A stretch of 33,272 nucleotides of DNA, taken from contig CAYVYK010000006.1 in the NCBI GenBank assembly GCA_964455675.1, positions 80,356 through 113,627 on the forward strand. The letters run 5' to 3'. Origin of the DNA: an uncultured Methanosarcinales archaeon (GTDB lineage: Archaea > Nanobdellota > Nanobdellia > Woesearchaeales > CAYVYK01). Positions 4,942 to 32,089 of this stretch are shown here, in pieces; positions within the stretch are counted from its first letter, which is position 1; every line of letters begins with the position of its first letter. The position numbers and the translations under genes are program-made. The notes under the pieces were generated by a model. It worked only from the letters and a program-made list of their open reading frames with translations, had not been told where the DNA came from and made no database searches.

Positions 4942-4989
4942 TCTCTATTGTGTTGAACTGCGTTATAAAAACATTTGGATGCGTGCTGC

Positions 4990-5541: not shown

Positions 5542-5698
5542 ACGAAGGAGGGGGCACTCTCGCTCTTATATAATTAATGTTTATAAAATATATAAAATCC
5601 GGAATATACATCCACTTACCGTCGATAGAGCATGAGACTACTTACTAGCGGAGAGTAAATTACATCTTTTCTTCATGCCAGAACATCATTCGCAGAAA

Positions 5699-6342: not shown

Positions 6343-6346
6343 TCAA

Positions 6347-6847: not shown

Positions 6848-6882
6848 GCCCTAAAAGACCATTATCAAAGTGGGAACCGCTG

Positions 6883-7428: not shown

Positions 7429-7533
7429 GGGAGAAACAATTCAGTACGCTCTTAAATAGTTTTTCATTCAAGCGCCACATAGATGGCATACGGACCAATT
7501 ACCATTGTGCACCTAAGTCTGTTCCGTACTATC

Positions 7534-8715
7534 CTATTCAATGCTCCTCTCAGAAAGGAGTCCGCGATGCAACTTCGCAATGTCCTCAATACTCTCTGAA
7601 TCAATACCTGTTGAAGAAATTTCGAGAAGGTATCTCCCCTCCGTCAGAATGGCAATCTCGCGATCTTGGATGCTGATATAATAGGTTCCTCCTACTTCAC
7701 GCACAACCGGATCGTGATTTGATACAAGATACGCAAGGATCCGAGTTTCTCGACGAGCGGCATCAATTGCGGATGCCTCATCAGCGAACTCTCGAACGGT
7801 GAGGCTGATCGACGCATTGTCCGATTCCCACGTCTTTCCATAGTACGGCCGTACGCGAACCTCTGCAAGATAATCATACACGGACTCATTAAAGAGGAGC
7901 GCCATAATCACTTTTTTTGTCATATTACCCGCTGCGTAGTACTCCAAAACGCTCTCCTCTTCACCAGGAGCCAGCTCAAATTGTGCGGCAAATTCATCCG
8001 TCATCAAAAGCACTTCCAATTCCTCCATGTGGTAGGGGTCCTCTCCTGCGACAACATCGACGAGCGTGGGCGTGACAAATGTCTCGATTGCCGCGGCGAT
8101 GAACAAGAAAGGCACAACGATCACGACAAACAAGATCAGAGCTCGCTTGATGACCTCCAACCTTGTGTATTCCGCACAATACCTTCGACCGAGCCATAAT
8201 TTCAACCCAATAATCAGTCCGAGTGCCGCAGCAAATAGGATCGCCGGGATCTCGAAAATGCCGTGCGGAACAACACCGACGATAATTGTGAGCCACCCAT
8301 TATTCTGCAGGGGAACAATATGACCTGCGAGCGAAAACACAATTCCAAGCATAGCACCGTTCGAGAGCAAAACTAGAAGTGTTAAGAAAATGGTTACACC
8401 AGCGCCAAGGGATAGAAGGCCTACAAGGAGGTTGTTGTAGAAAATCCTCCAGAACAGTAGCCCCTGATGAGACGTCATGATTTCCTCAATCTTATCAGCG
8501 AGCTCCTCCATGATCTGCATTTTCATTTCGAGAGTTGATGCAACCCCGACCATGATCGCGAGAAAGAAGAAAAATGCAACAAAGTACAAAACAAAACGAT
8601 GGGCTGAGAGGAATTCTGAGAGGAATGAATAGTACTTACTCCTCCGCTCCACGTTCTTTTGGATTCTTCTGTGAAATGCGGCTTTTCTCTTCGTCTGTAC
8701 TCTGCTCTGCACCAT
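7534..8715 (-). CDS. SpoIIM/DUF95 membrane protein with extra C-terminal soluble domain
   Basis: IFYNN, NG, PHGIFEIPA and AAAIETFVT motifs, followed by about 170 hydrophilic residues. Confidence 0.88.
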   Translation of the reverse strand: MVQSRVQTKRKAAFHRRIQKNVERRSKYYSFLSEFLSAHRFVLYFVAFFFFLAIMVGVASTLEMKMQIMEELADKIEEIMTSHQGLLFWRIFYNNLLVGLLSLGAGVTIFLTLLVLLSNGAMLGIVFSLAGHIVPLQNNGWLTIIVGVVPHGIFEIPAILFAAALGLIIGLKLWLGRRYCAEYTRLEVIKRALILFVVIVVPFLFIAAAIETFVTPTLVDVVAGEDPYHMEELEVLLMTDEFAAQFELAPGEEESVLEYYAAGNMTKKVIMALLFNESVYDYLAEVRVRPYYGKTWESDNASISLTVREFADEASAIDAARRETRILAYLVSNHDPVVREVGGTYYISIQDREIAILTEGRYLLEISSTGIDSESIEDIAKLHRGLLSERSIE

Positions 8716-8768
8716 CCATGTCTTGAACCTGCGTGGTTTTATAAAGTTACGTTCTTCACTTCTGCACT

Positions 8769-9737
8769 ATGTACGAATACGATCGCGAGATTCCTCGGCT
8801 TGTCACACATGGACTATCGAGAGTGCAATTTCTGTCTCGCGGACGTCGAGGAATCGTTTTTAGGGGACGGTACAATGATAGAGACGTTGCTGTGAAAATA
8901 CAGAATCCTACGAGTCATGCGCATCACCGGATCGAACATGAGGCGTTGATGCTTGGAAAACTTAACAAGCACGGAATTGGGCCAAAGCTTTACGCAGCAC
9001 CGGACGGTATACTCATCATGGAGTTCATATCCAAACAAACCCTTGAGGAGTGGATGCAGCGAGTGAGCGTCACTCGCGTCAGGAACGTCCTTATCGAAGT
9101 GATGCATCAATGCTTTATTATGGACCGGATGCGGATACAAAAGGAAGAAATGCATCATCCGCACAAGCACATCCTCATGAGAAAGGACAGGCCCGTACTC
9201 ATCGATTTCGAGCGAGCCCGGAGTACGGATAAACCGCATAATGTCACACAGTTCTTCCAATACATGCGAAACTCTCGACTTACTCACATTCTACAGACTC
9301 GCGGTGTGGTCCTTGATGAAAAACGCGTCCTTAATCTCATGAAGTATTACACAAGCGAAGGTCCAACACCAGCGACGTACAGCGTGCTAAGAGAATTCCT
9401 GGTCCGCGAATGTGCTGTGTACCCCAAATTTTACCATGAGGTGTGGCGGCTCGCGTCACAAATACCCCTCGGAAAAGTTAGCACATACAAACTCATCGGA
9501 GAAGCTCTTGGAACTCGCGGGTATCGAGCCATTGGCCAAGCGCTCCGGAGGAATCCTTTTTCACCCGATGTTCCTTGCCATCGCGTTATCAACAGCGATG
9601 GGACTGTCGGAGGATACGGTGGGAAGAAGTCATCGCTTGAGAAAATCAGGGTGCTCGAAGGGGAAGGAATTACAGTTACCAGCAAAGGAGTTGATCTGTC
9701 AAAGTACGGCTATCGGTTTGAGCCATACTCCCACTGA
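8769..9737 (+). CDS. Fusion of atypical Ser/Thr kinase (RIO/Bud32-like) and MGMT/Ogt alkyltransferase domain
   Basis: Kinase: GRRGIV, VAVK, HE, LIMEFI, LIDFER. MGMT: IPLGKVSTY, RAIGQAL, NP, VPCHRVI, GGYGG. Confidence 0.88.
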   Translation: MYEYDREIPRLVTHGLSRVQFLSRGRRGIVFRGRYNDRDVAVKIQNPTSHAHHRIEHEALMLGKLNKHGIGPKLYAAPDGILIMEFISKQTLEEWMQRVSVTRVRNVLIEVMHQCFIMDRMRIQKEEMHHPHKHILMRKDRPVLIDFERARSTDKPHNVTQFFQYMRNSRLTHILQTRGVVLDEKRVLNLMKYYTSEGPTPATYSVLREFLVRECAVYPKFYHEVWRLASQIPLGKVSTYKLIGEALGTRGYRAIGQALRRNPFSPDVPCHRVINSDGTVGGYGGKKSSLEKIRVLEGEGITVTSKGVDLSKYGYRFEPYSH

Positions 9738-10087
9738 CCATTCTTACCAACGTACAATTCACTTGACTTCTCTCCGTCACGAATGACTGTGACAACGAAA
9801 CCATCAAGCGCAGAATTGACTCTCGTCAACGGAACGATTGAAGAGACGGACTTCACCGCGGTGTTACCACCAATGGCTCGGACGGCATCCGCACTATACG
9901 TGAGACATCCACCGACAAAGAGCAGGGCAGAAGCGCCAATCGCTAGCGGTTTCACCCAGCGCCGTCTATGATAAGGTTGCGCTGCATAACTAAGCGGGTT
10001 ACCTTGGATTCCATTATCGCCGCTGATACTTGTATCACTGCCTTGACTCTTACCAACAGATTCCTCTAACGGGCTCTCAGGTGTCAT
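9710..10087 (-). CDS. Hypothetical single-TM protein
   Basis: 125-aa ORF with TM segment after RRRW; BRE/TATA GAAAGGTTTATATA upstream. Confidence 0.65.
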   Translation of the reverse strand: MTPESPLEESVGKSQGSDTSISGDNGIQGNPLSYAAQPYHRRRWVKPLAIGASALLFVGGCLTYSADAVRAIGGNTAVKSVSSIVPLTRVNSALDGFVVTVIRDGEKSSELYVGKNGQWEYGSNR

Positions 10088-10110
10088 ACTCTCAGTATTG
10101 ATGCTACTAG

Positions 10111-10153
10111 TATATAAACCTTTCGTTATTGTAGCTACTAACTAATAGTAACA
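10111..10153 (-). promoter_or_regulatory. BRE/TATA promoter plus upstream element resembling 16841-16883
   Basis: Minus-strand GAAAGGTTTATATA about 24 nt before ATG; 30/43 ungapped identity to 16841-16883. Confidence 0.55.
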
Positions 10154-10245
10154 CGTAGCAGTAACAATTCGCAATAACATAATACAAACAGACCTATTCC
10201 AATTACTCCGATACATTTAAGAACCCATTATCATCAAATTATCGC

Positions 10246-10833
10246 ATGGCTCGACAAGCTACTCGATCAGAAACTGTTCAAAAAACTATGAATGTGTTTG
10301 CTATCCTGTCACTTGTCTTTGCGTTCGTATTTCCGATTCTTGGATTAATCTTCGGCATTGTGGCGCTCGTCCAGCTACGGGAAAGCCACGAGAGCGGGAA
10401 AGGCATGGCCATTGCAGGCATAGTCATCAGCGGCGTTTTCATGATCATCATCCCTATCATTATCATCGCGCTCATCGGAGCGATTGGCGTTGCACTTTTT
10501 GCAAGCACTGTGCTACCACTAGTATTCGAAGGGCAGTGCATGATGCCACATGGCATCATCTGCGTTGCCACAGAACCTTCACTGGACGGAATGATTGGCA
10601 TAACCCTGCAGAACACGAATGAACTCATGATGAATGTGCGAACACAACTTGACGGCATGCCATGCAGTCCATCAGGAGTACAATGGCTAACCGGAGAAGA
10701 GGTGACATTCTCCTGTCCAGCACGAGAAGGGCAAAGCCACGGCCTACGAGCGAGGCAATTCTCAATAAGTTATATTGACACGGGAGGCATGCGTGTTCAG
10801 ACCGAAGGCAGGATCACTCAGCCGATTTCTTGA
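10246..10833 (+). CDS. DUF4190 membrane protein with C-terminal Cys-containing extracellular domain
   Basis: AILSLV...GLIFGIVAL..Q...ESGKGMAIAGIVI is the DUF4190 signature. Confidence 0.85.
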   Translation: MARQATRSETVQKTMNVFAILSLVFAFVFPILGLIFGIVALVQLRESHESGKGMAIAGIVISGVFMIIIPIIIIALIGAIGVALFASTVLPLVFEGQCMMPHGIICVATEPSLDGMIGITLQNTNELMMNVRTQLDGMPCSPSGVQWLTGEEVTFSCPAREGQSHGLRARQFSISYIDTGGMRVQTEGRITQPIS

Positions 10834-11179
10834 CACCACCTATCTTCCATAGTATGATTGCAGCAACATAGTTGGCCACCACAAGAATGACACTATACCC
10901 TGTAATCCCAACCATTCCGAGGAAATAAAGCAGAATCCCATCGGTTGCTAGTAGAATACACATACTGACGAATGTCTTAATACCCCAATGGTAATGCCCA
11001 AGACGAGCAGCCATGATCAGAGCTGGCAGAAGATAGAGGATGAAAAGTTTTACCCCCGTCCACAAGTAGAAGAAGAAATTCTCACGGAAAAAGAGCGCAA
11101 ACATCGCGATATAGACAATCCAGTACGTGATAATAATCGTCCTTGCGGCTACCCATGTACTACGTTTCACAAGGCTCAC
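10814..11179 (-). CDS. Four-TM hypothetical membrane protein
   Basis: Four hydrophobic segments; overlaps the end of the upstream co-oriented gene. Confidence 0.7.
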   Translation of the reverse strand: MSLVKRSTWVAARTIIITYWIVYIAMFALFFRENFFFYLWTGVKLFILYLLPALIMAARLGHYHWGIKTFVSMCILLATDGILLYFLGMVGITGYSVILVVANYVAAIILWKIGGVKKSAE

Positions 11180-12830
11180 CTGGAAAATTATTTATGAGCA
11201 CGGCAGGTCCATCATCCATATCCAAATACCTAAAATGACCGCTCATGATGCTTGCGTTTGCGAATCGATCCCAGTATGTCGTGTCATTCAGCTGATTGAA
11301 CAATACAATCGTGATTGCGTCAAAATCACACAGCGACGCTTCCGTGAGATCGGCAACATCCTGAAACTCTTGTGAAGACGAAAAGTGAATCCAGCCCTGA
11401 CGCGTGTCGCCTGTACGCTCGAGCAGGGGAATAATCTTGAATACCGAGGAGTTGCCAATCTTGACCCGCTCATAATTTTCCTGATCCTCCATATCGAGGA
11501 CGAAAGGCGGCCTATTGATCAGCCAGAGCAGCCGTAAGGGAGGGGCTTTATCTGTCACCACAAGCACACGGGCATCCTTGGGCAGATCCTCTTTGAGATC
11601 AAGCAGCCAGTTCATGTATGACTCGGGCAGAAGCGGATTACCCTTGAAGATCATTGTGTTGAACTGCGCGACAAAAACGAGGAGGAGCAGAACCGAAAGA
11701 ACTGCAGTCACCATGAATTGTACGCGTTCGTACTTCTCACAGATCATATGGATAATCAGGAACACGACGAGCGCAAAAAATATGGAGGAAAAAATCGGCC
11801 AGTACAATCTCACGTCGTAAAACCTTGTGTACCCAAGATGAATCCCAAACCCAAGGAAAAACAGGAGGAAAAACGGGAGAAATTCAGGAACCGCTTCCTT
11901 ATGCGATACGAGCCAATACACTGCCAGAAGGACTCCAAGCCAGATCACATACCAGTACGGTCCAAAATGCACTGAGAACGGATAACTGTAGATGTCAGCA
12001 GTCTCGTATGACACTATGCGAGGAATAAGCGAACCCACCTTATCGTGCCATGAATGGATAAAGATAATCAGGTAGTCAATGCTAGCGAGGATACCTGCAA
12101 GAAAACTCAGCACGAATCCTCCCGCTTGACGGAACGACATCTTCTTAAATATCAGAGATGCAAGGATATACAGAGCACCACAGAGTGCCAAGTATACTAA
12201 CTCAGGGGTGTGGGTGAGCGCGATCGCAGCGACGATTATACCAAATAGGACGTATCCAAGGAGGCTGCGTTCATGGTACAACACGTAAAATGCAAGCGAG
12301 AGAAAAAACATTCCGAGCACGAGCAAATGATGACCGTACGCAAAACTTGATGCGAACGGCACGGCTTGAATGATCGCCATGACCGGCAACGATAAAAGGG
12401 CAAGATGCCTGTCAATTCTCCTAATACAAAAGTACCAAATAAGAGGGGTGAGAGCGAATGCCAACCCCACAAGAAGTATCAGTGACGCCCTTGGAGCGAG
12501 ATTCAGCAATCTTGCTTGGAATGCCGCGAGATAATACACCACGGGAGGCTGGGGAGAAACGAGACCTTGCACTCCTCCGCTCAGAACAGGGGGTGTTTGG
12601 TCGAGGACTCCGTGCGAGGTGATGTACTCAACGTATGCAAGATGCCAAAACGCATCCTGCGAGAGGTACACATACAGCTCCTTTGGATGAAGCGAATAAT
12701 GCTGAGCTTGTGGAACGTTTGAGAAGAACAGTAAAGCGACGGAGAATACGACGATGCATAGCTCGATTATGCCCTCATACTTTTTTAAAAAACCCAGCTG
12801 ATCTCCCAACTTTCCCAAAATAGACCCCAT
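11160..12830 (-). CDS. Multi-pass membrane protein, probable GT-C fold glycosyltransferase-like
   Basis: About 12 TM segments; QDAFWH and PQPP in first external loop; ALTH motif; C-terminal soluble domain (LPKDARVLV). Confidence 0.6.
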   Translation of the reverse strand: MGSILGKLGDQLGFLKKYEGIIELCIVVFSVALLFFSNVPQAQHYSLHPKELYVYLSQDAFWHLAYVEYITSHGVLDQTPPVLSGGVQGLVSPQPPVVYYLAAFQARLLNLAPRASLILLVGLAFALTPLIWYFCIRRIDRHLALLSLPVMAIIQAVPFASSFAYGHHLLVLGMFFLSLAFYVLYHERSLLGYVLFGIIVAAIALTHTPELVYLALCGALYILASLIFKKMSFRQAGGFVLSFLAGILASIDYLIIFIHSWHDKVGSLIPRIVSYETADIYSYPFSVHFGPYWYVIWLGVLLAVYWLVSHKEAVPEFLPFFLLFFLGFGIHLGYTRFYDVRLYWPIFSSIFFALVVFLIIHMICEKYERVQFMVTAVLSVLLLLVFVAQFNTMIFKGNPLLPESYMNWLLDLKEDLPKDARVLVVTDKAPPLRLLWLINRPPFVLDMEDQENYERVKIGNSSVFKIIPLLERTGDTRQGWIHFSSSQEFQDVADLTEASLCDFDAITIVLFNQLNDTTYWDRFANASIMSGHFRYLDMDDGPAVLINNFPGEPCET

Positions 12831-12973
12831 GCATCAGGAACAATCTTCACGGTCTTAAAAAAACTTGCGGGAAACGATGCGCAGGAAACAAAAATTCTCC
12901 GCTAATTTTACGTAGTGCACTACCCGTATCTTTTTATACACCACTGCATTACCCTCCATAGGGGGTGAAACTC

Positions 12974-13342
12974 ATGCGGACCGAACATCCAATGAGGGGT
13001 GCATATGAAGTACTCTTTGAAGCGTATACCCGCGCACTTCGGCCACTTTTTCTTGATGGAAGCCCAGAGCAGCGTGCGGCTATCGCAACTGGCCTAGATG
13101 ACATCCTTGACCAATCCAAACACTCAGGCACTGCACAAGCAGAACGGGCAAGAACTCGGTTTGGACGACTACGAGCGTGGGACAAACGAGTCGCAGAAGG
13201 ACTCAGCCGTAATCAGTTAGCAGAACAGCTCGGCATCCATCCGTCGACGATAACACGGTACGAAAACGGGAACGGAAGTCCGCTCTGTGGCTCAGAACAG
13301 GGGTCGCGCTACCTATCCTGGTACCGACACAGGCAAAAGTGA
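12974..13342 (+). CDS. XRE/Cro-type HTH protein
   Basis: GLSRNQLAEQLGIHPSTITRYENG; GGGGTGA RBS before ATG 12974. Confidence 0.85.
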   Translation: MRTEHPMRGAYEVLFEAYTRALRPLFLDGSPEQRAAIATGLDDILDQSKHSGTAQAERARTRFGRLRAWDKRVAEGLSRNQLAEQLGIHPSTITRYENGNGSPLCGSEQGSRYLSWYRHRQK

Positions 13343-21813: not shown

Positions 21814-24336
21814 ATGTTTAGAAGAGGCAATGTGCTTGGATCCATTCTGATCATCTTAGGGATTTTAACGGCAACTGCGCTCTATACCACTACACAACTC
21901 CACGGACCTAGCCGACGTGCGAGCATAGCAGAACTCTCCACACAGGTGGACTATCTCATTGAGGACGCAATACTACGCGCCATCCGCGACTATATCAAGT
22001 TCGGATACTCACGATATGATCCACATGATCCTATGATGTATGGTACTGATGTATGGTACTGCGAGCAGTCAATCCCACCCCACATCGGTGAGTCATCACA
22101 AGCCCTTGCACAATACATTAAGTACTACATCTCCATCGCTGTTGACAAAATCAACAGCGATTATGCGTCCCAAGGATTACATGTGAATAAACCTGATTAT
22201 ACCGATATCTATGTCGAAGGAGAGCAAGCGACAAGCATCGATCAACTACCTAACGACGGATTCTACGTACGCATCACGAATTTCTACGCAACGTACACGG
22301 AAAACGGAGACAGCATCACAAAGGACCTTAGCAAAACATACACCTTTAGTTACCGTCTCTGGCATATCTACAAGAAGATGCACCAGTGGATCGAGGATGA
22401 TGCAGGGAAGATCCAACTGAAAGTGTATGAGGCCATGACGGAAAAAGGATGCGAGGCACGAAAATGCTGCTGTGACCGAACCGGATCTGCAGACCGCTTC
22501 ACGTGCGGCGAGGTGCAGAGCCTTATCTCACAGTTTGGTGTGACGGCACAAGAAGTGGAAGCACAAATCCAAGCATCCGTGAACGAGCTTAATGCCGAAT
22601 TTGCAGGAACAAACATCCAGTGCGAATACATCATCGACGAAAAACTGGTCAATAATATCGCTGACTATAACAAGACTTTAGCGCAGGAGATTGACCAGGG
22701 ACATCGCTTCGAGTGCCTCAGCGTATGCCATAAGGACAATTATCCTCTGCCGCCTGATGAGGATATCATCCATGAAGAACTGTTCATCGGTGTGGCAAAC
22801 CAAGTTCTGAATCCCACATCTGCCCGCGGACAGCCGGGAAACTGGGGCTGCCCGTCACTAGACGAGACCGCATACCCAGAAACTATTGATCGGCCGTATG
22901 TATATGACAAATCGATGGACTGGTCGAATGTTGAGGAATTCCGAAACTTCACATGCCCATCAACCCAAGGCAGCGGACAACCAACGAACTATTTCGTTGG
23001 AGTAAGAAAGATGGCTGCATATCTTTACACAATACGATGCACAGACAGCAGCGCTTCCATCCAAACGGAAGACGGATTTGAACCATTCGCTCCGCAATTC
23101 CGCGTACGATGGAAGCTTCAATTCAAGTGCCCCATGCAGCGAGGTAACTATGTGCGGATCAGCGACCAATGCCAGGTGGGAGTAGGACCCGGCCAAGGCG
23201 CGGGCGAAGGCGAGGGCGAAGGAGAAGGCGAGGGCGACGGAGAGGGACCTCCACCACCCCCACCCCCAACGCCGCCGCCAGGTGGAGGAGAACTACCGAC
23301 GCCAACACCTGTCGGCGGATGCTTCCCTGCAGGAAGCGTGGTCCTCATGGCAAACGGGGAGAAGCGGCCGATCGAGGAAGTGCGCGCTGGAGACTACGTT
23401 CAAGGATATAACGATCGCACTAACCAGTACATACACGCGCAAGTCATTGCCGTTGAAGCGCCCATTGTGAACAGCATCTATCACATCACGTTCAGCGACG
23501 GCAACATACTGCGAGTGACAGATGATCACCCCATCCTCACAACAGTCGGGTGGGCAGCGCTCAATCCAGAAAAGGCACTCGCGGCAACGAACGGGATAGA
23601 GATTCACACTCTCAAGGTCGGGGACAAGATTGTGGCTTACCATACAACGCCCAAGCGAATCAAGGAGATACGCGCCATACAAGGACGGTTGCAGACATAC
23701 AATCTGCGCCAGGTTGAACCAGGCAACACATTTTTCGTGGACGGAGTACTCGTGCACAACAAGTACTGCCCTCCATCAGACTGCGATGTACCCCCCGGCG
23801 GAAGCCCGCAGTGCTTCCAGTGCTCGCAAGATGAAGTCACCGGCGAGAAAACATGCTCGGTACCTAATCCTGAGCTTGTATGCTCAGGAAAAACATGCGC
23901 AAAATGCGGAACAAGCGGAGCGTGCGATGCACCAAGACCTGGCGTTGTCTGCGGAACGGCAACCCAGTGCGCGCAGTGCGCGGATGATTCTACGCAATGC
24001 GTGTACAATCATCCCGACAGGGTCGGCGATAAATGTCACGGGAACGAACCATGCGTCACGTACTGTTCAACAAGCGGCTGTAATGACAAGCATCGGCTTG
24101 GCACGAGCTGCACCATCTCGGGAGCGCACATCGGATCATGCACTATTCCACCCTACCAGGGATCATGCACATCATCAGGCTCTTACCTTGTATGCACGGG
24201 AGACATACCCCCAGAATACCAAGGCAGAGTATGCTGTCATGGAGACCTCTGTAACACCGGAGAAATATGCTGCGATCTTGGCGGTGGCATCTACGACTGC
24301 GGCCCTGTTGGCGGCTGTGACCCAGACTCAGGATAA
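21814..24336 (+). CDS. Prepilin-like exported protein with internal Hint domain and Cys-rich C-terminus
   Basis: MFRRG/NVLGSILIILGIL N-terminus; Hint CFPAGSVV...TDDHP...YNL...FFVDGVLVHN; 28 Cys in the last 191 aa. Confidence 0.85.
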   Translation: MFRRGNVLGSILIILGILTATALYTTTQLHGPSRRASIAELSTQVDYLIEDAILRAIRDYIKFGYSRYDPHDPMMYGTDVWYCEQSIPPHIGESSQALAQYIKYYISIAVDKINSDYASQGLHVNKPDYTDIYVEGEQATSIDQLPNDGFYVRITNFYATYTENGDSITKDLSKTYTFSYRLWHIYKKMHQWIEDDAGKIQLKVYEAMTEKGCEARKCCCDRTGSADRFTCGEVQSLISQFGVTAQEVEAQIQASVNELNAEFAGTNIQCEYIIDEKLVNNIADYNKTLAQEIDQGHRFECLSVCHKDNYPLPPDEDIIHEELFIGVANQVLNPTSARGQPGNWGCPSLDETAYPETIDRPYVYDKSMDWSNVEEFRNFTCPSTQGSGQPTNYFVGVRKMAAYLYTIRCTDSSASIQTEDGFEPFAPQFRVRWKLQFKCPMQRGNYVRISDQCQVGVGPGQGAGEGEGEGEGEGDGEGPPPPPPPTPPPGGGELPTPTPVGGCFPAGSVVLMANGEKRPIEEVRAGDYVQGYNDRTNQYIHAQVIAVEAPIVNSIYHITFSDGNILRVTDDHPILTTVGWAALNPEKALAATNGIEIHTLKVGDKIVAYHTTPKRIKEIRAIQGRLQTYNLRQVEPGNTFFVDGVLVHNKYCPPSDCDVPPGGSPQCFQCSQDEVTGEKTCSVPNPELVCSGKTCAKCGTSGACDAPRPGVVCGTATQCAQCADDSTQCVYNHPDRVGDKCHGNEPCVTYCSTSGCNDKHRLGTSCTISGAHIGSCTIPPYQGSCTSSGSYLVCTGDIPPEYQGRVCCHGDLCNTGEICCDLGGGIYDCGPVGGCDPDSG
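23203..23280 (+). repeat. Coding low-complexity linker: (GE)n then poly-Pro
   Basis: GEGEGEGEGEGDGEG PPPPPPPTPPP immediately upstream of the Hint domain. Confidence 0.9.
23320..23760 (+). other. Hint / intein-like autoprocessing domain (147 aa, no homing endonuclease)
   Basis: Cys1 (CFPAG), block B TxxH (TDDH), terminal His-Asn; +1 residue is Lys. Confidence 0.9.
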
Positions 24337-25515: not shown

Positions 25516-26493
25516 TTACATGTACTCGAGATCAATCCTCAGTTCAGTCAGACTGTTCACAAAGAGCGCGACACGCTTCGTATAGATAATAAGCTCAACA
25601 TCCTTCTTGTTTGCTTCAGATTTCAATTTTGCGTAGACGCGGTTCATCTCCTCAGTGAGGTGATAGATCTTTTGTGCCTGAGCTGTTGAAAAATGGTACT
25701 GGAGAACAGAGTACGCCTTGAACATCCCTACCACATGATGGAACATCGTTTCGACATTCTTGCTTGCCCTCTCGCCTTCCATAAGGAGAAGGCCAATCTT
25801 CTTGAACGAATCACCGAGCAGTTCAAGCGTGAATATCAGGGAGTACATCGTCTGAGTCTTGCGATAATCCTCGTGACCATACTTATTCAGCAGCCTTAGG
25901 CACAGATCCTCAAACCTATCAAGATTTGTGTCAAGGATATGGATCTCCTTTAACTCATCAAAGTTACCTTTGAACGCTCCCTCAAGGATCTCAGCCATAG
26001 TCGTCAAAAGGTGGAAAATCCTGCGGAATGCGTTGTCAAACTCTTTTGGACTCGTCTCGCCAAGCTCCCGAATTACGCAATAACTACCGCGCTGCTCAAT
26101 AATTACCATACCGACCAGGCGATTCACAAGAGCCTGCACCGCTTCGATTGGGCTGAGAGCGTCTTCGTTTGGTATTCTTCGCGAAAGGGTGTCCAGCGTG
26201 AATGCCGTATGCACATGCCCGGAGCCGTTTGAGTCAAATTTCACCCGAATCTCGTCGTAACCTGCGCGGTAGACGCTTGAGATCATGCGCCAAATGGCCC
26301 GAGTGCGCAAGGAAGATATATCAATCGAGATGGTCCTTGCCGTCTGATGTTCGACGGAGGAGACCAGGAGCTCCCTTCCTCTCTCCGTAACATCGAGCTC
26401 ATCTCCTGCGCGGATCGTATTCCTTATCGCCCATTTGCTTGGGAGCGTGAGCGTAAGGGTATTCTTCCCCTGTTTGATCACCTTTCGTCGCAT
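25516..26493 (-). CDS. Archaeal AbrB/MazE-PhoU transcriptional regulator
   Basis: RKVIKQGKNTLTLTLPSKW...GDELDV (AbrB-like); YRAGYDEI; PhoU-like helices (DTNLDRF..LCLRLLNK, LELLGD). Confidence 0.9.
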   Translation of the reverse strand: MRRKVIKQGKNTLTLTLPSKWAIRNTIRAGDELDVTERGRELLVSSVEHQTARTISIDISSLRTRAIWRMISSVYRAGYDEIRVKFDSNGSGHVHTAFTLDTLSRRIPNEDALSPIEAVQALVNRLVGMVIIEQRGSYCVIRELGETSPKEFDNAFRRIFHLLTTMAEILEGAFKGNFDELKEIHILDTNLDRFEDLCLRLLNKYGHEDYRKTQTMYSLIFTLELLGDSFKKIGLLLMEGERASKNVETMFHHVVGMFKAYSVLQYHFSTAQAQKIYHLTEEMNRVYAKLKSEANKKDVELIIYTKRVALFVNSLTELRIDLEYM

Positions 26494-26513
26494 ACTTGCT
26501 TGTGATATCAGGC

Positions 26514-26570
26514 AATATATTAATGCTTTATGTATATTCAGAATATATTAGATATATCTACATATATTTT
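26514..26570. promoter_or_regulatory. Phased TATAT boxes with 12-bp palindrome in divergent intergenic region
   Basis: TATAT at 26533, 26544, 26553 and 26563; perfect palindrome TAGATATATCTA at 26549-26560. Confidence 0.5.
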
Positions 26571-26654
26571 TGTGCGGAAACTATATTGTATACTGCATAG
26601 CTATTTATCACCCTTCGGAGTCGTATAATTCCACGATTCGTTTGGGGTGATACC

Positions 26655-27005
26655 ATGCACACAACTATCGATACAACTCTAGCGCATATCGCAGATGAAG
26701 CCGCAAAGCTCTTTGCGAAGCGAAAACGCACCGGCGGCGAACCAGTTTCGCAGGATTACCAGATGGCTGCACGCAACGCTGTCTATTACGGCATGAGCGG
26801 CTATACCATCCATGTCGGTCATGAAGCGCTCGGGTTTTGCGACCATGAGACAATCAGCCAAAATCCCGGGCAAGTCACCAGGAACGATTGGCACGTTCTT
26901 GCTCATTCGCTTGCCGACACACTTGACGCGCATGGAGACGTGCATTCCTCACAAGCAGCTCGTGCATACGCAGAGCGGGACTTTAGCGTCTTTACACTTG
27001 GGTGA
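26655..27005 (+). CDS. His-rich hypothetical protein (116 aa), first gene of the radical SAM operon
   Basis: GGGGTGA RBS; GTGA overlap with the next gene. Confidence 0.75.
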   Translation: MHTTIDTTLAHIADEAAKLFAKRKRTGGEPVSQDYQMAARNAVYYGMSGYTIHVGHEALGFCDHETISQNPGQVTRNDWHVLAHSLADTLDAHGDVHSSQAARAYAERDFSVFTLG

Positions 27006-27964
27006 AATTGGTGGATAGCGCTTACACATTCTCTCTCGAACGAGAGAAACATTTTCCCCCCATGGTGCAGCTCACTATCACGAATGTGTGCGATATGGCA
27101 TGCACGCAGTGTGCGCATCCCGTGTATCGACGAGAAGAAGGATACAAGCCCTCGTTCATGGACATGGATCTCTATCATAAGATTACCGAAGAAATGAAGA
27201 ATCATCCATGGTCTGTACTCCGAATCTTCGGGTGGGGAGAGCCACTCCTGCATCCGCATCTTGCAGAAATGATCGCAGAAGCAAAAGCACGAGGAATTGA
27301 GAGCACGAATCTTATCACAAACGGCCTCAAGCTCGATCAGGATATCAGCACAAAACTTGTACGATCAGGGCTTGACGTGCTTGAGATAAGCCTTGATGCC
27401 GCAACACCGCAAACGTACGCCCTCATTCGAGGGAGCGAACGGAACCACCAGATTGTTGCGGAAAACATCCGACGCTACGTGCAGATCCGGGATGATCTCA
27501 AAGGCTGGACGTACGTTACCGTAAGTATCATCAACCAGCCCAAAGCAGCACACGAGATAGAAGACTTCAGACGCGCATGGCAGGGAATAGCGGACGACGT
27601 CATTGTCCGCACATTCCACGACTTTCAAGGGTACGCTCTGGACGGGGGCACTATCACACTTCCACCGAGGCACCCTTGCAGATGCCTATGGTCACGATTC
27701 AATGTGAATTCGGAAGGTCTCGTCAACATTTGCTTCAATGATTGGCACAATAAAGACGTGCTCGGAGACCTAAAAGATCCGGCCGCGAGCATCGCACAGA
27801 TATGGACAAGTCCGCGGTACGAAGAATACCGTGCGAGCCATCTCGACGGAAAACCAAAGGGAATATGCGGGAAATGCAGGGACTGGATAGGGGCAAGCTG
27901 GTCCACGCCGTACGAGACGCTCATTACTCGTGCGCAGGCACGCATCGCGGAGCGACGACGCTGA
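27002..27964 (+). CDS. Radical SAM enzyme with twitch/SPASM-type auxiliary domain
   Basis: CDMACTQC; GWGEPLLHP; ITNG; ISLDA; PCRCLW...GLVNICFND...CGKC. Confidence 0.93.
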   Translation: MKLVDSAYTFSLEREKHFPPMVQLTITNVCDMACTQCAHPVYRREEGYKPSFMDMDLYHKITEEMKNHPWSVLRIFGWGEPLLHPHLAEMIAEAKARGIESTNLITNGLKLDQDISTKLVRSGLDVLEISLDAATPQTYALIRGSERNHQIVAENIRRYVQIRDDLKGWTYVTVSIINQPKAAHEIEDFRRAWQGIADDVIVRTFHDFQGYALDGGTITLPPRHPCRCLWSRFNVNSEGLVNICFNDWHNKDVLGDLKDPAASIAQIWTSPRYEEYRASHLDGKPKGICGKCRDWIGASWSTPYETLITRAQARIAERRR

Positions 27965-27995
27965 GATACCTTTTGAGCATGAGGTAGCGAGAGCT

Positions 27996-28754
27996 ATGCA
28001 AGCAATCATCCTAGCTGGAGGAAAGGGAAACAGACTTTTGCCACTCACCAACTATGTACCCAAACCGCTCCTCCCAATCAGGGGAGAACCAGCGATCAAA
28101 CTCGTCATCGAATCGCTTGTTCGCGCAGGAGGAAAAAACATCATCATCGTGCTACCTACGAACCGAGGAGCTCTCGAAGACTACCTTCTGCACCTCCAGA
28201 CTGATGTACCGATCACGTACGCGCACACTCATCCCTATGAAAATCGAAGGGGTATGGCCATTGGCGTCATGCAAACCGAACAGCTAGTCGGAGAGCATTT
28301 TGTTGTGACCGCATGCGACACAGTGTTTCCTGCATCCTACATACAGGAGCTCTATACTTACCACACCAAGAACTTTTGCGATGCCACATTAAGCGTGAGT
28401 GACCTTGGAGCGCGAGATCTCCTCGTCGGGAAAAGCGTAGTAGAGATATCTGCTTCGGGCGACATCATCAACATAATTGAGAAACCAACACTTGAGCAGG
28501 TTACCACATCGCTCGTATCAACACCTCTCTACGCGTTCAGCAAGAAAATATTCCCGCACCTTGAGAAGCTGGAGCCGTCGAGGCGAGGAGAGTACGAACT
28601 ACAGGACGCAATCAACTCCATGATACGATCAAAAGGAGTCGTCAGAGGATTCATGAATCCTCTCTGGAATTCTCTGGACGAATGGGTGATGCTGAACGAC
28701 GGATACGAATTCCTGAGACTCAACTTTCCCTATCTCAAACTACCACCAAGGTGA
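27996..28754 (+). CDS. Nucleotidyltransferase, sugar-1-phosphate NTP transferase family
   Basis: AIILAGGKGNRLLPLT...PKPLLPI; IIEKP; SRRGEYELQDAI. Confidence 0.93.
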   Translation: MQAIILAGGKGNRLLPLTNYVPKPLLPIRGEPAIKLVIESLVRAGGKNIIIVLPTNRGALEDYLLHLQTDVPITYAHTHPYENRRGMAIGVMQTEQLVGEHFVVTACDTVFPASYIQELYTYHTKNFCDATLSVSDLGARDLLVGKSVVEISASGDIINIIEKPTLEQVTTSLVSTPLYAFSKKIFPHLEKLEPSRRGEYELQDAINSMIRSKGVVRGFMNPLWNSLDEWVMLNDGYEFLRLNFPYLKLPPR

Positions 28755-28758
28755 TACC

Positions 28759-30081
28759 ATGAAACCATTTATCCTGCGAGAAGAGTATTTCGGCGCAAGC
28801 GTCATTCGGCGGAAGAATCTTACGTTCTTTTTCTTGAACGAATGGCAAACAGAATTCCTCAAAGAGATTCCGCACGCAAGCATCAGGGCGAGCATGCAAA
28901 GTGTATCAGCGCGCTCCCATGTCCCATTGTCAGACCTTGAACGATTCGCTTCTGAACAACAAGCGAAGGGGATGCTAGGCAGAGAGGGAGAGAGCGAGTA
29001 TACCGTTCGAGAGATGACGGAGGACAAACAATCGCTTCCACGAGGAATCCTCAAAAGCCCGCTACGACTCTACTTTGAGGTCACAAGGAAATGCAACCTG
29101 CGCTGCAAGAACTGCTTTTCATCGTCTGGCAATGCATTCACAGATGAGCTTACGCACGCAGAAGTGCTCAAGACGCTAGATGAACTACGAGCAGCAGACG
29201 TTCTTGAAGCGCGCATCACGGGCGGAGAACCGACACAGCGGGACGGATGGCGGGATATCATCAGCCACGCAAAAGACCTCGGCCTAGCGGTATCCCTTAA
29301 CACGAATGGAGTATATCCTGATCCAAATGTGCGGGATGATATCCTAAGGCTAGGAGTTGACCAAGTCATCATCAGCCTCGATGGGAACAAGGATGCGCAC
29401 GAAAGCTTGCGAGGAGAAGGAACATACGCGAAAACACTCGAGACCATACGATACCTCAGCGAGCGGGCAAACAATGTTCGCATCAACACGATCCTCAAGG
29501 AAGAGACAGTTCCGCACATCCCAAAACTCATTCATATGGCGCACGATCTTGGAACAGAAATGTGTTTCATCCTCCTAAGACCAGTGGGCAGGGGGGAAGA
29601 GCTCTTCGACGCAATACCCTCCCTTCATGCGCTTTACGATGGAGTGCGGCTCGTAAAGGAACTTCGCAAGCAATACCCGGAAACAAAAATCCTCACAAGC
29701 TACGACGTCATCCAGGCAAACGCTGTTATGGCGGCACCTGATGTTGACCTAACTGGATGTGCAGCTGCGCTGCGAGGATGCGGCATCAGCAGCAAAGGCC
29801 GCGTGGAGTGCTGCGGATTTCTTGCGGAACTCACGGACGAATATACTCCTGGCAATATCCGGGATCATGGCTACAGCGTTCTTTCCATGTGGCGAAACTC
29901 TCCGCGTGTGCAAGCATTCCGCGAGCTTAACATCGCACGCAATAAAGAATGCGTCCAATGCCCCAGCTATGACGTCGCATGCTTTGGCAGCTGCGCTGCC
30001 ATGCATGTCTACCGCAGCGTGAATCCAAGAGGAAAGGACCCCTACTGTGTGCGCGATCGCTCCTGCGGTGGTGGACCATGA
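28759..30081 (+). CDS. Radical SAM/SPASM enzyme with RRE/PqqD-like N-terminal extension
   Basis: CNLRCKNC; TGGEP; SPASM GCAA...GRVECC...CVQC...CFGSC...DPYC; N-terminus LREEYFGA...FFLNE. Confidence 0.92.
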   Translation: MKPFILREEYFGASVIRRKNLTFFFLNEWQTEFLKEIPHASIRASMQSVSARSHVPLSDLERFASEQQAKGMLGREGESEYTVREMTEDKQSLPRGILKSPLRLYFEVTRKCNLRCKNCFSSSGNAFTDELTHAEVLKTLDELRAADVLEARITGGEPTQRDGWRDIISHAKDLGLAVSLNTNGVYPDPNVRDDILRLGVDQVIISLDGNKDAHESLRGEGTYAKTLETIRYLSERANNVRINTILKEETVPHIPKLIHMAHDLGTEMCFILLRPVGRGEELFDAIPSLHALYDGVRLVKELRKQYPETKILTSYDVIQANAVMAAPDVDLTGCAAALRGCGISSKGRVECCGFLAELTDEYTPGNIRDHGYSVLSMWRNSPRVQAFRELNIARNKECVQCPSYDVACFGSCAAMHVYRSVNPRGKDPYCVRDRSCGGGP

Positions 30082-30650
30082 TTGATGAACCTCTTCTTGC
30101 ACGCATCAGGGCCCTTGCGCACCGCATACATCCGCGACACAACATGGAAGGGCACATTCTGCCCGTCGTGCAGATATCCCTTGAGCTTGCACAAGAACTT
30201 GATACGACAGATATTTCCGTAGTTGAGGCGGCCGCGTACCTTCACGACGCTGGGCGCGTAAGGTTCGGGTGCTACAGGCATGACGTGACAGGATCGATCT
30301 ATGTTGATTGGAAACTTCGGCAGTATCACGTCCCTCGGGCTGCGCGAGAGCATATCGTCTCATGTGTCCGAACGCACCGAGGAACGAAGGAGCATCCGCC
30401 TCAGAGCATTGAAGCAGAAATCGTCGCGAACGCAGATGCCCTGTCGCACTTTGAATGCATCCTGTACGAATTCGGAATCCATTACTCCCATACCCACAGC
30501 GTTCGAAAAACCTCGGAGTGGTACAAGACGAAGTGTGAGTATGACCTAGCGCGCAAACTCACGATACCAGGTGCGCGAACCCGAGCTATACACCACTACA
30601 CGCACTTCGTCTCGCCACTCTTATCCACGCTTGCGAGGTATGTGCAATGA
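30078..30650 (+). CDS. HD-domain phosphohydrolase
   Basis: GHILPV...AAYLHDAGR...HDVTG...RTH...IVANADALSH; ATGA overlaps at both ends. Confidence 0.9.
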   Translation: MIDEPLLARIRALAHRIHPRHNMEGHILPVVQISLELAQELDTTDISVVEAAAYLHDAGRVRFGCYRHDVTGSIYVDWKLRQYHVPRAAREHIVSCVRTHRGTKEHPPQSIEAEIVANADALSHFECILYEFGIHYSHTHSVRKTSEWYKTKCEYDLARKLTIPGARTRAIHHYTHFVSPLLSTLARYVQ

Positions 30651-32089
30651 AGCGCGTTCTGCTCGTCGGGCCGCACGCACAAAACATACGTACCGGGCAA
30701 TACCTTGCCCCACCACTCGGAATACATCGACTTGCGAGCTACCTACGAGCACGAAACCTCGCAGAAGTGGATGTCATCGATCCATGCCTTCAGCATGAAC
30801 CTCTCGATCGAGCGTATGATTACATCGGTACTAGCATGTTGCATCCAACATTGCCAGTCGATATCGATTTTCTCTACCGTGCGAGGCAAGCCCAACCAAA
30901 AGCGACAATTATTGGAGGAGGTCAGGGAGCAAAGTTTCACGCGGAAATGCTCCTGCGAGAGACTCCGCTGGATATGATCATACAAGGCTGGGGGGAAAAA
31001 CCACTCGCCGCGTTAATCAGCGGTGAACAACCTGAACGCATCCCTGGAATACTCACACGCGACATAAAGGGAATGCCCGAAGAACAAGTAACAACGCATG
31101 AATTCCGAGAAATCTCGATGTCCATTGACTTTTCAACAATACCTTTTCGACGATATTGGGAACATATGAACGCGATCTATCGACCGGAGCACCAGCGACT
31201 CATGAAAACCGAGGGCATGATGCGCACCGTGCGCCTGATGACATCAAATTACTGCCCCATGGGTTGTACGTTCTGTTCATCAACACGGTTCCTCGGTAGC
31301 CATCAGCGCTTTTATCAGCTTGATGCAGAGGATGTCGTTAAACTCATGGAATCGGCTCGGAAAGCGGAACCTGAGGTTGAGAGCTATTACTTCAACGACG
31401 ATGACTTCATGATCAATACCAAACGAATGACAGCCTTCTGCACTCTTGTGCGTGAAAAGTTTCCCGAACACCATCTCATGTGCATGGGACGTATCGATGA
31501 TCCTGACGGTGACATGCTCACACGGATGGCTGGCAGTGGTTTCTCCATCATCTTTTATGGCGTGGAAACATTCTCTGACCGTTTAGCCATGGAAATTGGA
31601 AAGAGCTCCATCCCAAGCTATGGACCCATGGCATACCAGAAGGTCCTTGACACCATCGCAGCAGGGATAACTCCGCAGATTTCACTTATGCTTTTTATCC
31701 CAACGACAACCGACAAGGATCTTGAGACAACCATTGATGTGACCGTTGATCTCTTGTCGCAAGGCGCCCGCGCAACAGTGTTTCCTTACGTTGAGGCTTT
31801 TGCCGGGACACCCATTGTAGACCACCATAACGTTCAAACTCAAACTTATTCCATACATGGTCAAGAATTCACACTGCCCACTGTTGTTTTACCTGATGAC
31901 GTGAGTATACGCATGCTTGCGGAACGGGCAATAAAGAGAAAACATACGTACAACTCACTCTGCGGTCCGCGTTACGGAGGAGTTATACCCCAGCCCATAG
32001 ACACGCTGCACCTCTTTAAATCAGTCTATGAGGAAATGGGAAAACCAACTTCTACGATCGACAACCTTCTTCTGACTATGGTCGAGTGA
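30647..32089 (+). CDS. Cobalamin-binding radical SAM enzyme
   Basis: PPLGIHRLASYL and IIGGG..A, D.IIQGWGE in B12 domain; CPMGCTFC; FNDDDF; YGVET. Confidence 0.92.
   Translation: MKRVLLVGPHAQNIRTGQYLAPPLGIHRLASYLRARNLAEVDVIDPCLQHEPLDRAYDYIGTSMLHPTLPVDIDFLYRARQAQPKATIIGGGQGAKFHAEMLLRETPLDMIIQGWGEKPLAALISGEQPERIPGILTRDIKGMPEEQVTTHEFREISMSIDFSTIPFRRYWEHMNAIYRPEHQRLMKTEGMMRTVRLMTSNYCPMGCTFCSSTRFLGSHQRFYQLDAEDVVKLMESARKAEPEVESYYFNDDDFMINTKRMTAFCTLVREKFPEHHLMCMGRIDDPDGDMLTRMAGSGFSIIFYGVETFSDRLAMEIGKSSIPSYGPMAYQKVLDTIAAGITPQISLMLFIPTTTDKDLETTIDVTVDLLSQGARATVFPYVEAFAGTPIVDHHNVQTQTYSIHGQEFTLPTVVLPDDVSIRMLAERAIKRKHTYNSLCGPRYGGVIPQPIDTLHLFKSVYEEMGKPTSTIDNLLLTMVE

Follow-up and report, generated by a model that had tools for sequence, protein, structure and literature searches.

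Recurrent three-enzyme radical SAM cassette in a DPANN archaeon with a possible role in tailoring a nucleotide-activated sugar

The present work concerns a stretch of 33,272 nucleotides from the end of contig CAYVYK010000006.1 of an uncultured archaeon (the whole stretch is referred to below as the window), and in particular the six-gene operon at positions 26655 to 32089, which encodes three radical S-adenosylmethionine (radical SAM) enzymes of different classes together with a nucleotidyltransferase, a hydrolase and a small helical protein. By analogy with characterized enzymes, and with a probability of roughly one half, the operon is read here as a variant of a recurrent, undescribed cassette that would tailor a nucleoside diphosphate (NDP)-linked sugar, or a sugar-like polyol, by radical chemistry. 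The tailoring of sugars and nucleotides by radical SAM enzymes is known, as is the use of nucleotide handles; what is new is a cassette of three such enzymes, one of which bears a domain resembling the recognition element (RRE) that is associated with peptides made on the ribosome and modified after translation (RiPPs). Full-text searches, which had most subscription journals and supplements outside their scope, found no description of this gene combination, and the main texts of two DPANN genomics papers make no mention of radical SAM enzymes. The genes of the operon are the following.

26655..27005, plus strand: g1, small helical protein, 116 aa; no Pfam, NCBIfam or PADLOC match
27002..27964, plus strand: g2, BtrN-like twitch radical SAM enzyme, 320 aa; Pfam Radical_SAM 60.2 bits, SPASM 36.2 bits
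27996..28754, plus strand: g3, short sugar-1-phosphate-type nucleotidylyltransferase, 252 aa from ATG; Pfam NTP_transferase 95.2 bits
28759..30081, plus strand: g4, radical SAM/SPASM enzyme, 440 aa; Pfam Radical_SAM 75 bits, SPASM 24.1 bits
30078..30650, plus strand: g5, HD-domain phosphohydrolase, 190 aa from ATG at 30078; Pfam HD (PF01966) 41.5 bits
30647..32089, plus strand: g6, cobalamin-binding radical SAM enzyme, 480 aa; Pfam B12-binding 44.7 bits, Radical_SAM 49 bits

An earlier note, made from the DNA letters, had described six tightly packed genes on the plus strand, and the open reading frame (ORF) calls bear this out, with 4-nt overlaps at 27002 (GTGA), 30078 (ATGA) and 30647 (ATGA) and with gaps of 31 and 4 nt; the order of domains that it gave is confirmed by Pfam, which places g1 in no family. 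The first overlap depends on the start codon chosen for g2, since the alternative start GTG 27011, which has a better Shine-Dalgarno-like sequence (GGGTGA) 5 nt upstream, would turn it into a gap of 5 nt. The longest ORF of g3 begins at GTG 27930. Assignment of the operon to a PADLOC defence system was considered and rejected, as only generic pVip and Cas3-HD cross-matches were obtained.

The recurrence of the operon was evaluated starting from g4, for which a word-indexed search found about 30 full-length homologues at 30-60% identity. Genome and metagenome contigs were scanned with an alignment of the nine closest homologues, which gave 67 and 80 loci; the related loci were then searched with all six proteins, a scan with an alignment of g6 added named genomes, and genes in the related loci were called as longest ORFs. 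Co-occurrence in other genomes, which the earlier note had proposed as a check, is found for the three radical SAM enzymes but not for the full set of six genes, which among the related loci searched is seen only in the window. Homologues of g6 (35-37% identity), g2 (25-45%) and g4 (28-39%) occur together in nine other loci (L084, L087, L122, L089, L255, L256, L259, L261 and L260), five of which are metagenome-assembled genomes (MAGs) labelled Pace-, Woese- or Nanoarchaeia.

The arrangement of these genes follows several patterns. Contig L091, only 2.6 kb in length, has g2 (54%), g3 (43%) and g4 (51%) in the order of the window, and two partial contigs pair g4 with g6 (L077, 55% and 41%) or with g5 (L079, 42% and 40%). 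The GC-rich contigs L084, L087 and L122 have the order g6 (36-37%), g2 (42-45%), g4 (37-39%). A common architecture, led by a divergent AbrB-type gene, is shared by L255 (Pacearchaeota), L261 (Woesearchaeota) and the metagenomic L089, in which a g6 homologue (36-37%) is followed by homologues of g2 and g4, by a DUF4922 gene and by a second SPASM enzyme of about 505 aa; L089 and L255 continue with a NUDIX gene and then an HD gene (37-43% identical to g5), and L261, where the DUF4922 match is weak, keeps the order up to the second SPASM enzyme and has a family 2 glycosyltransferase (GT2) gene next. A longer version in L256, L259 and L012/L100 includes a NUDIX gene, a thymidylate-kinase-like gene and an NTP_transferase gene, to which some of these loci add a methyltransferase, a CTP_transf_like gene or a histidine phosphatase. 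A single ORF of 828 aa in L260 (Nanoarchaeia) joins a g6-like part (residues 6-498) to a g2-like part (residues 510-787), and g4 follows it. Eight further pairs of g4 and g6 homologues agree exactly in the length of their longest contig, which suggests that the members of each pair share a contig.

A separate g2 match (at least 80 bits) is present in 12 of the 25 loci which have a g4 match of at least 150 bits, as compared with one of the 86 loci which have only distant SPASM matches, and this one is the truncated orthologue L122; judged from these sequence matches, g2 is associated specifically with the g4 family. The six genes as a set do not form the conserved unit, which comprises three radical SAM enzymes found together across many uncultured lineages, an interchangeable nucleotidyl-transfer enzyme and nucleotide hydrolases, and which is often accompanied by a divergent AbrB-type regulator. 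The suggestion of a dedicated pathway with an unknown product thus stands in so far as the core recurs and belongs to no curated family, but it does not extend to g1, which is outside the conserved unit.

The genes other than those for radical SAM enzymes in the related loci are overwhelmingly nucleotide-handling. NTP_transferase genes lie in or beside the cassettes of the window, L091, L012/L100, L103, L256 and L259. The DUF4922 family, which we take to be related to enzymes of the Ap4A-phosphorylase/GalT type, is represented in L085, L086 (where the protein has a weak ATP_transf C-terminal match), L089 and L255, and weakly in L261. Because NTP_transferase is replaced in this way by an unrelated protein, a step of nucleotidyl transfer is indicated, and the replacement is the best single clue to an NDP-linked intermediate. 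NUDIX genes are found in L012, L085, L089, L098, L101, L255, L256 and L259, and a NUDIX domain is fused to a g4 homologue in protein P0030; HD genes are found in the window, L079, L089 and L255, PHP genes in L015 and L110, and a MazG-like match in L077 is weak (E 0.01, under the cut-off). Kinases are also represented, as thymidylate-kinase-like genes that are accompanied by CTP_transf_like genes in L012, L103 and L256 and stand alone in L259, as an AAA_18 kinase in L101, and as a nucleoside diphosphate kinase (NDK) fused to a cobalamin-binding radical SAM domain next to g4 homologues in L080 and L011 (the latter labelled Saccharibacteria). GT2 genes lie beside a g4 homologue in L082, L083, L103 and L261, and a UDP-galactopyranose mutase gene does so in L090.

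A sugar is proposed as the substrate because the g2 profile matches BtrN and DesII and g3 resembles AglF, GlmU and RmlA, because the nearest named relatives of g6 lie in glycan clusters and belong to the same supported clade as cassette members, and because a g6-like domain is fused to a GT2 domain in one related locus and the homologues of g2 found within the phylum lie in glycan clusters. The label "twitch-type" that the earlier note gave to g2 is supported by its cysteines: in addition to C30, C34 and C37, the four C-terminal cysteines C226, C244, C289 and C292 are invariant in 13 of 13 family sequences, and a profile of these 13 sequences matches BtrN with E 9e-20 over both the radical SAM core and the auxiliary-cluster (twitch) region, residues 221-316 aligning to BtrN 161-254. 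The CX3CX2C motif of g2 is CDMACTQC, and its PF04055 score of 60.2 bits compares with a cut-off of 29.5. The spacing of the auxiliary cysteines, C-x17-C-x44-C-x2-C, is presumably the same in BtrN. To judge by these features g2 is of the twitch subclass, with one predicted auxiliary [4Fe-4S] cluster. BtrN, the founding twitch enzyme, is the 2-deoxy-scyllo-inosamine dehydrogenase of butirosin biosynthesis and DesII is a deaminase/dehydrogenase of thymidine diphosphate (TDP)-sugars, so the nearest solved relatives of g2 oxidise or deaminate carbinol centres of cyclitols or TDP-sugars. The likeness has its limits, in that the identity to these enzymes is low, no aminoglycoside or macrolide-sugar genes surround g2, and g2, unlike BtrN and DesII, is found alongside two further radical SAM enzymes. 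Homologues of g2 at E<=1e-30 are present in 7 of 400 other genomes of the phylum, all at 29-33% identity, where they lie among genes for NeuB, KDO-8-P synthase, cytidylyltransferases of cytidine monophosphate (CMP)-sugars, glycosyltransferases (GTs) and flippases.

The PF00483 score of g3 (95.2 bits against a cut-off of 21.2) is accompanied by an N-terminal LAGGKGNRLLPLT motif at residues 6-18, and G-x-G-x-R-L is the N-terminal signature of sugar-1-phosphate nucleotidylyltransferases. Its NCBIfam matches all fall under their cut-offs (AglF 139.1 against 400, archaeal GlmU 126.6 against 292, RmlA-long 97.2 against 320 bits), so that the substrate of g3 is not fixed by its family. The HD metal ligands of g5 are complete, H26, H56-D57, H100 and D120 being invariant in three of three orthologues. 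Those orthologues, in L079, L089 and L255, are 37-43% identical to g5, and the family profile matches the uncharacterised small HD hydrolases 2pq7, 3djb, 5dqv and 3gw7, of which 5dqv is, as we understand it, the NTP pyrophosphohydrolase YpgQ. The best NCBIfam match of g5 is the HD part of a tRNA methyltransferase fusion (28 bits against 434).

Some of the family matches of these three proteins point instead to the maturation of a metal or pterin-type cofactor, in which g2 would be a MoaA-like or tungsten-cofactor-maturase-like enzyme and g3 and g5 would form a MobA-like or DVU_1551-like pair of nucleotidyltransferase and HD protein that produces a dinucleotide cofactor. The best NCBIfam match of g2 is indeed the radical SAM maturase of tungsten cofactor oxidoreductases (94 bits), followed by MoaA (62 bits), g3 also matches the MobA-like family NTP_transf_3 (58.8 bits), and for g5 there is a weak match (19 bits) to the HD portion of the NTP transferase of the DVU_1551 family. 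This explanation is nevertheless very improbable: the NCBIfam scores are far under the cut-offs (94 against 380, 62 against 284 and 19 against 315), neither the window nor the sister loci have a molybdo- or tungsto-enzyme, a pterin gene or a MoaB, MoaC, MoaD or MoaE gene, and the g2 profile, for which the matches after BtrN are DesII (E 1e-7), the lipid enzyme Tes, MoaA (3e-6) and BlsE, is much closer to BtrN than to MoaA.

Further evidence comes from g6, which matches PF02310 at residues 17-123 (44.7 bits, cut-off 32.1) and PF04055 at residues 199-364 (49 bits, cut-off 29.5) and has the CX3CX2C motif CPMGCTFC; the motifs of g2, g4 and g6 are all invariant in the family alignments. The g6 family has 1143 members at E<=1e-20, among which about 20 orthologues are 39-49% identical to g6. 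The nearest named relatives, L253 (Nanoarchaeota, 46%) and L254 (Pacearchaeota, 41%), each stand alone inside a glycan cluster, with DegT, an FdtA-like isomerase, GT2, GT9, GT1 and a flippase as neighbours in the first case and AglB/STT3, GT1, GT2, GT4, an FkbM methyltransferase and GT10 in the second. In a quick IQ-TREE run, a clade of 16 rows, supported by a value of 97 in the Shimodaira-Hasegawa-like approximate likelihood ratio test (SH-aLRT), holds the g6 of the window, L077, L253 and L254, so that members from cassettes and from glycan clusters are mixed within it. Five MAGs, with labels that read Pace-, Woese- or Nanoarchaeia, archaeon or "Methanosarcinales", were found by the locus scan to have g6 orthologues of the cassette type (35-37%), and among 40 relatives of the same order the best match to g6 is 27% identical. 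Domains like g6 also form part of giant ORFs in Omnitrophota (L001 3641-12541, 2966 aa; L262 2-21334, at least 7111 aa), most of whose length has no Pfam family; in the giant protein of L001 the g6-like domain is fused with a GT2 domain.

The same enzyme raises the question of whether the substrate is instead a free nucleotide whose ribose or base is remodelled, as in the formation of oxetanocin or of viperin products, to give an analogue of a nucleoside or nucleotide (for instance an antimetabolite or an antiviral chain terminator), with kinases that supply or re-phosphorylate the substrate and HD, NUDIX or MazG-like enzymes that process or detoxify the product. When a seven-sequence profile of g6 is compared with the PDB, the best match is the B12 domain of OxsB (E 3e-7, 32.5 bits), followed by 9ccb and AprD4 and weakly by NocN and TokK; a search with the single sequence gave no PDB match at E<=0.001. 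A passage of PMC9204698 describes OxsB as requiring the HD phosphohydrolase OxsA and as acting on a nucleotide, and the HD gene g5 lies directly beside g6, overlaps its start by 4 nt and is predicted to be translationally coupled to it, in a manner reminiscent of the OxsA/OxsB pairing. The small HD hydrolases matched by the g5 profile (including 5dqv), the NDK fusions, the thymidylate-kinase-like genes, the AAA_18 kinase and the frequent NUDIX genes would all suit free nucleotides. The PADLOC model for prokaryotic viperins (pVips) matches g2 (57.8 bits) and g4 (56.6 bits), and pVips likewise involve a radical SAM enzyme associated with nucleotide kinases and hydrolases.

Taken together, however, these observations leave the free-nucleotide explanation rather unlikely. 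In OxsB only the B12 domain is matched, the ten matches of the g5 profile at E<=1 do not include OxsA, and the window differs from the oxetanocin system in having two more radical SAM enzymes and a nucleotidyltransferase. The pVip matches are weak and cover the generic radical SAM core only, the NCBIfam model viperin_w_prok gives g2 56.7 bits against a cut-off of 180, and pVips act as single enzymes and are not known to have auxiliary clusters or B12 partners. Chemistry on a free nucleotide would have no need of g3, which is of the sugar-1-phosphate type; the closest solved relatives of g2 act on a cyclitol and a TDP-sugar; and the closest relatives of g6 sit in glycan clusters.

If the operon does tailor a nucleotide-activated sugar, the steps can be proposed as follows. 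The nucleotidyltransferase g3 would couple a sugar-1-phosphate, or a similar phosphate ester, to an NTP to give the NDP-linked substrate, a step which the unrelated DUF4922 protein would carry out in place of g3 in sister cassettes. The BtrN/DesII-like g2 would abstract a carbinol hydrogen, so that the ring is oxidised or deoxygenated, g6 with its cobalamin would methylate or rearrange an unactivated ring carbon, and g4 would perform a third radical step whose type the proposal leaves unspecified. The nucleotide handle would then be cleaved, or side products cleared, by g5, in whose place a NUDIX, PHP or MazG-like enzyme may act elsewhere. The product may be released, or may be used at the cell surface by glycosyltransferases whose genes lie elsewhere; the divergent AbrB-type regulator probably controls the operon, and g1 would be a lineage-specific addition.

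A nucleotide handle of this kind resembles, by analogy, the one used in the fosfomycin pathway, in which the cytidylyltransferase domain of Fom1 acts before the C-methylase Fom3 and the nucleotide is afterwards removed: in both cases a nucleotidyltransferase would attach the handle, a cobalamin-binding radical SAM enzyme would act on the substrate that carries it, and a hydrolase would remove it. The window differs in having no phosphoenolpyruvate (PEP) mutase or phosphonate genes, and the Fom3 model is absent from the 15 NCBIfam matches of g6, among which a PhpK-family P-methyltransferase scores 42.9 bits against a cut-off of 600. Fom3, which according to the reference list of PMC9204698 acts on cytidylyl-hydroxyethylphosphonate, and the OxsB/OxsA pair provide precedent for a nucleotide handle in combination with cobalamin-binding radical SAM enzymes. 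A set of genes like Fom1, Fom2 and FomC is present in another DPANN genome of the same class (L169, G336:C5:90000-107000, at about 3700-13200), where a PEP-mutase/cytidylyltransferase fusion, a thiamine pyrophosphate-dependent decarboxylase and an Fe-alcohol dehydrogenase adjoin two twitch/SPASM radical SAM enzymes, a cobalamin-binding one, a CDP-alcohol transferase and two nucleotide pyrophosphatase/phosphodiesterases; the set has the look of a pathway to a phosphonate, which may be a methylated one.

The main unexplained observation is the architecture of g4, which resembles that of RRE-bearing peptide maturases. The Pfam scores of g4 (PF04055 75 bits against 29.5, PF13186 24.1 against 21.5) and its CX3CX2C motif, CNLRCKNC, establish a radical SAM enzyme with a SPASM domain, and the cysteines C334, C352, C398, C401, C408, C412 and C430 are invariant among nine close homologues; of these, C398 alone stays invariant when the family is widened to 29 sequences, with C401, C408 and C430 almost so. 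The AlphaFold2 model, with a predicted local distance difference test (pLDDT) score of 92, has an RRE-like (PqqD-type) beta3-alpha3 region at residues ~4-70, modelled at pLDDT ~95, then the radical SAM barrel and then the SPASM domain. Foldseek places SuiB first, over the full length (E 1e-18, template-modelling (TM) score 0.70 over 463 columns), followed by SkfB, PqqE, CteB and TigE, and only then by BlsE, anSME, MoaA, DesII and viperins. In the model, the three-part build of the protein is like that of SuiB, CteB, SkfB and MftC/PqqE, including a SPASM domain with at least seven cysteines, and at least 90% of the 29 family members retain an R-E-x-F-G motif near the N-terminus.

These features fit an explanation in which a ribosomal peptide or small protein is matured, either as a RiPP or as a cofactor of the mycofactocin or pyrroloquinoline quinone (PQQ) kind: g4 would recognise the substrate, which would be g1 or an undetected short ORF, by means of its RRE, and the other radical SAM enzymes would modify it further. 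The best NCBIfam matches of g4 and g6 are both to enzymes of such pathways, MftC (TIGR03962, 162.7 bits) and ApyD (59 bits), and g1 is predicted to be translationally coupled to g2. The MftC score falls short of the cut-off of 265, however, as does that of ApyD of 750, g4 has no Pfam PqqD match at E<=0.01, and in many of the 29 family members the N-terminal domain is reduced to a stump. A search of 34 related loci and the window for a shared small ORF was negative, even within the close set L084, L087 and L122, although a precursor may be encoded elsewhere; no peptidase, exporter or leader-processing gene is found in the window; and the neighbours of g4 handle nucleotides, constant partners that have no role in known radical SAM RiPP pathways. 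Peptide maturation is consequently considered unlikely. Two side observations concern distant or variant relatives of g4. In L104 (7607-7804) and L107 (2222-2419), a distant g4-like SPASM gene (26%) is preceded directly upstream by an ORF of 66 aa, 86% identical between the two, which may encode a precursor peptide, though only for the distant subfamily concerned. In L010 (1493-4747), a MAG labelled Bacteroidales, a g4 homologue of 40% identity has no cobalamin-binding radical SAM gene next to it and is followed by two URO-D/MtaA-like methyltransferases that flank a corrinoid protein (B12-binding_2 plus B12-binding), a set which may constitute an alternative module for cobalamin methyl transfer.

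Nor does g1 have the properties of a typical RiPP precursor. Its AlphaFold2 model consists of four helices (pLDDT 87.2, predicted TM score 0.83), a well-folded structure which has no disordered layout of leader and core, and the g1 family profile has no match in the 165 related loci searched, the best E being 2.7 in a first set of 156 and 0.19 in the other 9. The description of g1 as an orphan comes close: in 5.8 billion proteins a word-indexed search retrieves g1 alone, but an exhaustive phmmer search of 1.84 billion representatives finds five remote relatives (E 1e-6 to 2e-8) and one further match, to a repeat protein, which is probably spurious. The relatives are 111-149 aa in length, apart from one of 2430 aa (P0053), share the core ...NFLRYG...G..C....QNPG... 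and lie on ENA contigs of 814-5546 nt, or in the case of P0053 on a contig of 310 kb. The ESM Atlas has no usable match for g1. With the modelled structure, Foldseek has no match in the PDB at E<=0.001, and the best match in VIA (Z 6.9) is to globin-like helical domains, under the significance level for helical folds. It is concluded that g1 is a real, folded, lineage-specific protein which is outside the conserved cassette and is predicted to be co-transcribed with the operon.

Several points count against the proposal that the substrate is an NDP-sugar. The RRE-like domain of g4 is modelled with confidence, and the top structural matches, SuiB, SkfB, PqqE and CteB, are all peptide maturases. 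No glycosyltransferase, flippase or sugar dehydratase is found in the cassette of the window or in most sister cassettes, and partners of the NDK, thymidylate-kinase-like and NTP-pyrophosphatase types would suit free nucleotides no less well. The match of g6 to solved cobalamin-binding radical SAM enzymes is weak, at 32.5 bits over the B12 domain. None of the six operon proteins reaches an NCBIfam equivalog cut-off, so every substrate assignment is made by analogy. Finally, the related loci come mostly from unbinned and often short metagenome contigs, and the counts of presence and absence are lower bounds. With these points included, the evidence favours nucleotide-activated sugars among the sugars, nucleosides and RiPPs that the earlier note had listed as products of such families, and lies nearer to the case of a glycan sugar, which that note had named as a possible refutation, but no known pathway could be mapped. 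A bolder reading, which is doubtful, regards the cassette as a mobile, self-contained factory in lineages of ultra-small symbionts (DPANN archaea, one MAG labelled Saccharibacteria, and Omnitrophota); in three consecutive radical steps, one of them cobalamin-dependent, some common nucleotide or nucleotide-sugar would become a bioactive nucleotide analogue of a new kind, for use as an antimetabolite against viruses or the host, or the sugar-nucleotide would be coupled radically to a protein or peptide by way of the RRE domain of g4. Either chemistry would be unprecedented.

The host belongs to the DPANN archaea, as the earlier note had supposed: an RpoB fragment has 73-78% identity to MAGs of which most are labelled Woesearchaeota, Nanoarchaeota or Nanoarchaeia, and some uncultured Methanosarcinales, which points to an archaeon of the Woesearchaeota type. 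Its genome comprises 1.72 Mb and is 99% complete, and the window is the end of a contig of 113.6 kb. The sequencing runs listed as containing this DNA are two DNA runs of one study, with no RNA run among them. The expectation that such genomes are biosynthetically minimal fits this one poorly, since it has 17 Radical_SAM and 3 B12-binding matches. Matches to cobalamin-binding radical SAM enzymes are present in 24 of the 40 relatives of the same order, often with several adjacent; clusters of several radical SAM genes are a trait of this archaeal group and not a peculiarity of the host genome, and because they are common in the order, the DPANN setting is less surprising than the earlier note implied. 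A second cluster in the host genome (G000:C17:21600-26800) groups, within 5 kb, a cobalamin-binding radical SAM gene with two other Radical_SAM matches, of which one is weakly g4-like (27% identity). Recent horizontal transfer of the operon, which was considered, is unsupported by composition: its GC content of 0.513 is within the range of the genome (0.490, standard deviation 0.024), in which 9% of 5.4-kb windows are at least as GC-rich.

Four features of the window that bear on the expression of the operon are the following.

25516..26493, minus strand: divergent regulator candidate, 325 aa; N-terminal SpoVT/AbrB (MazE_antitoxin) DNA-binding domain and weak PhoU-like C-terminal part
26494..26654: divergent intergenic region, 161 nt, AT-rich (32% GC); presumed to hold the promoters of the operon and the regulator
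26646..26657, plus strand: first copy of a 12-mer, consisting of the GGTGAT resembling a ribosome-binding site (RBS) and the ATG of g1
28750..28761, plus strand: second copy of the 12-mer, consisting of the RBS-like GGTGAT and the ATG of g4

The MazE_antitoxin match of the regulator candidate (E 4.2e-5, 23.9 bits) is just under the Pfam cut-off of 24.7, and its PhoU match (E 0.005) is also under the cut-off. Homologues are divergent beside related cassettes in L089 (32% identity), L255 (26%, partial) and L261 (26%), and one in L256 (24%), with a PhoU match of 25.6 bits that is above the cut-off, lies about 5 kb from the cassette; the host genome has five paralogues at 21-27% identity, which is a caveat to the association. 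The 12-mer GGTGATACCATG occurs at 26646 and 28750 as the earlier note had said, as compared with 0.14 occurrences expected from shuffles of the word. It has 6 copies in the genome, and 96 different 12-mers repeat within the window. The word was rejected as a regulatory repeat, being an RBS plus ATG that carries no extra meaning.

On the 3' side the operon is followed by a convergent gene of 203 aa which belongs to no family. Elsewhere in the window, an ORF of 840 aa (21814-24336, plus strand) has, as its one recognised domain, a Hint/intein-like module at residues ~500-650, and a protein of 322 aa (8769-9737, plus strand) combines an N-terminal half that weakly resembles RIO or protein kinases with a C-terminal DNA-binding domain of the O6-methylguanine-DNA methyltransferase type. 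Two runs of N, each of exactly 100 (1193-1292 and 2704-2803), represent scaffold gaps or masked stretches.

The radical tailoring of sugars and nucleotides is established in a handful of antibiotic pathways, each of which has one or two radical SAM enzymes of this kind, and here three classes of radical SAM enzyme are combined with a proposed nucleotide handle in organisms that have been thought nearly devoid of biosynthesis. A passage of PMC8421398 has Woesearchaeota rarely encoding cobalamin synthesis, so that the hosts of the cassette must scavenge cobalamin. For enzymology, the cassette offers a defined set of orthologues, a natural fusion of g6 and g2, and a pointer to the intermediate in the exchange of NTP_transferase for the non-homologous DUF4922. 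A product that turns out to be a surface sugar would add a new building block to the interface between symbiont and host; one that turns out to be a nucleotide analogue would represent a new class of natural product.

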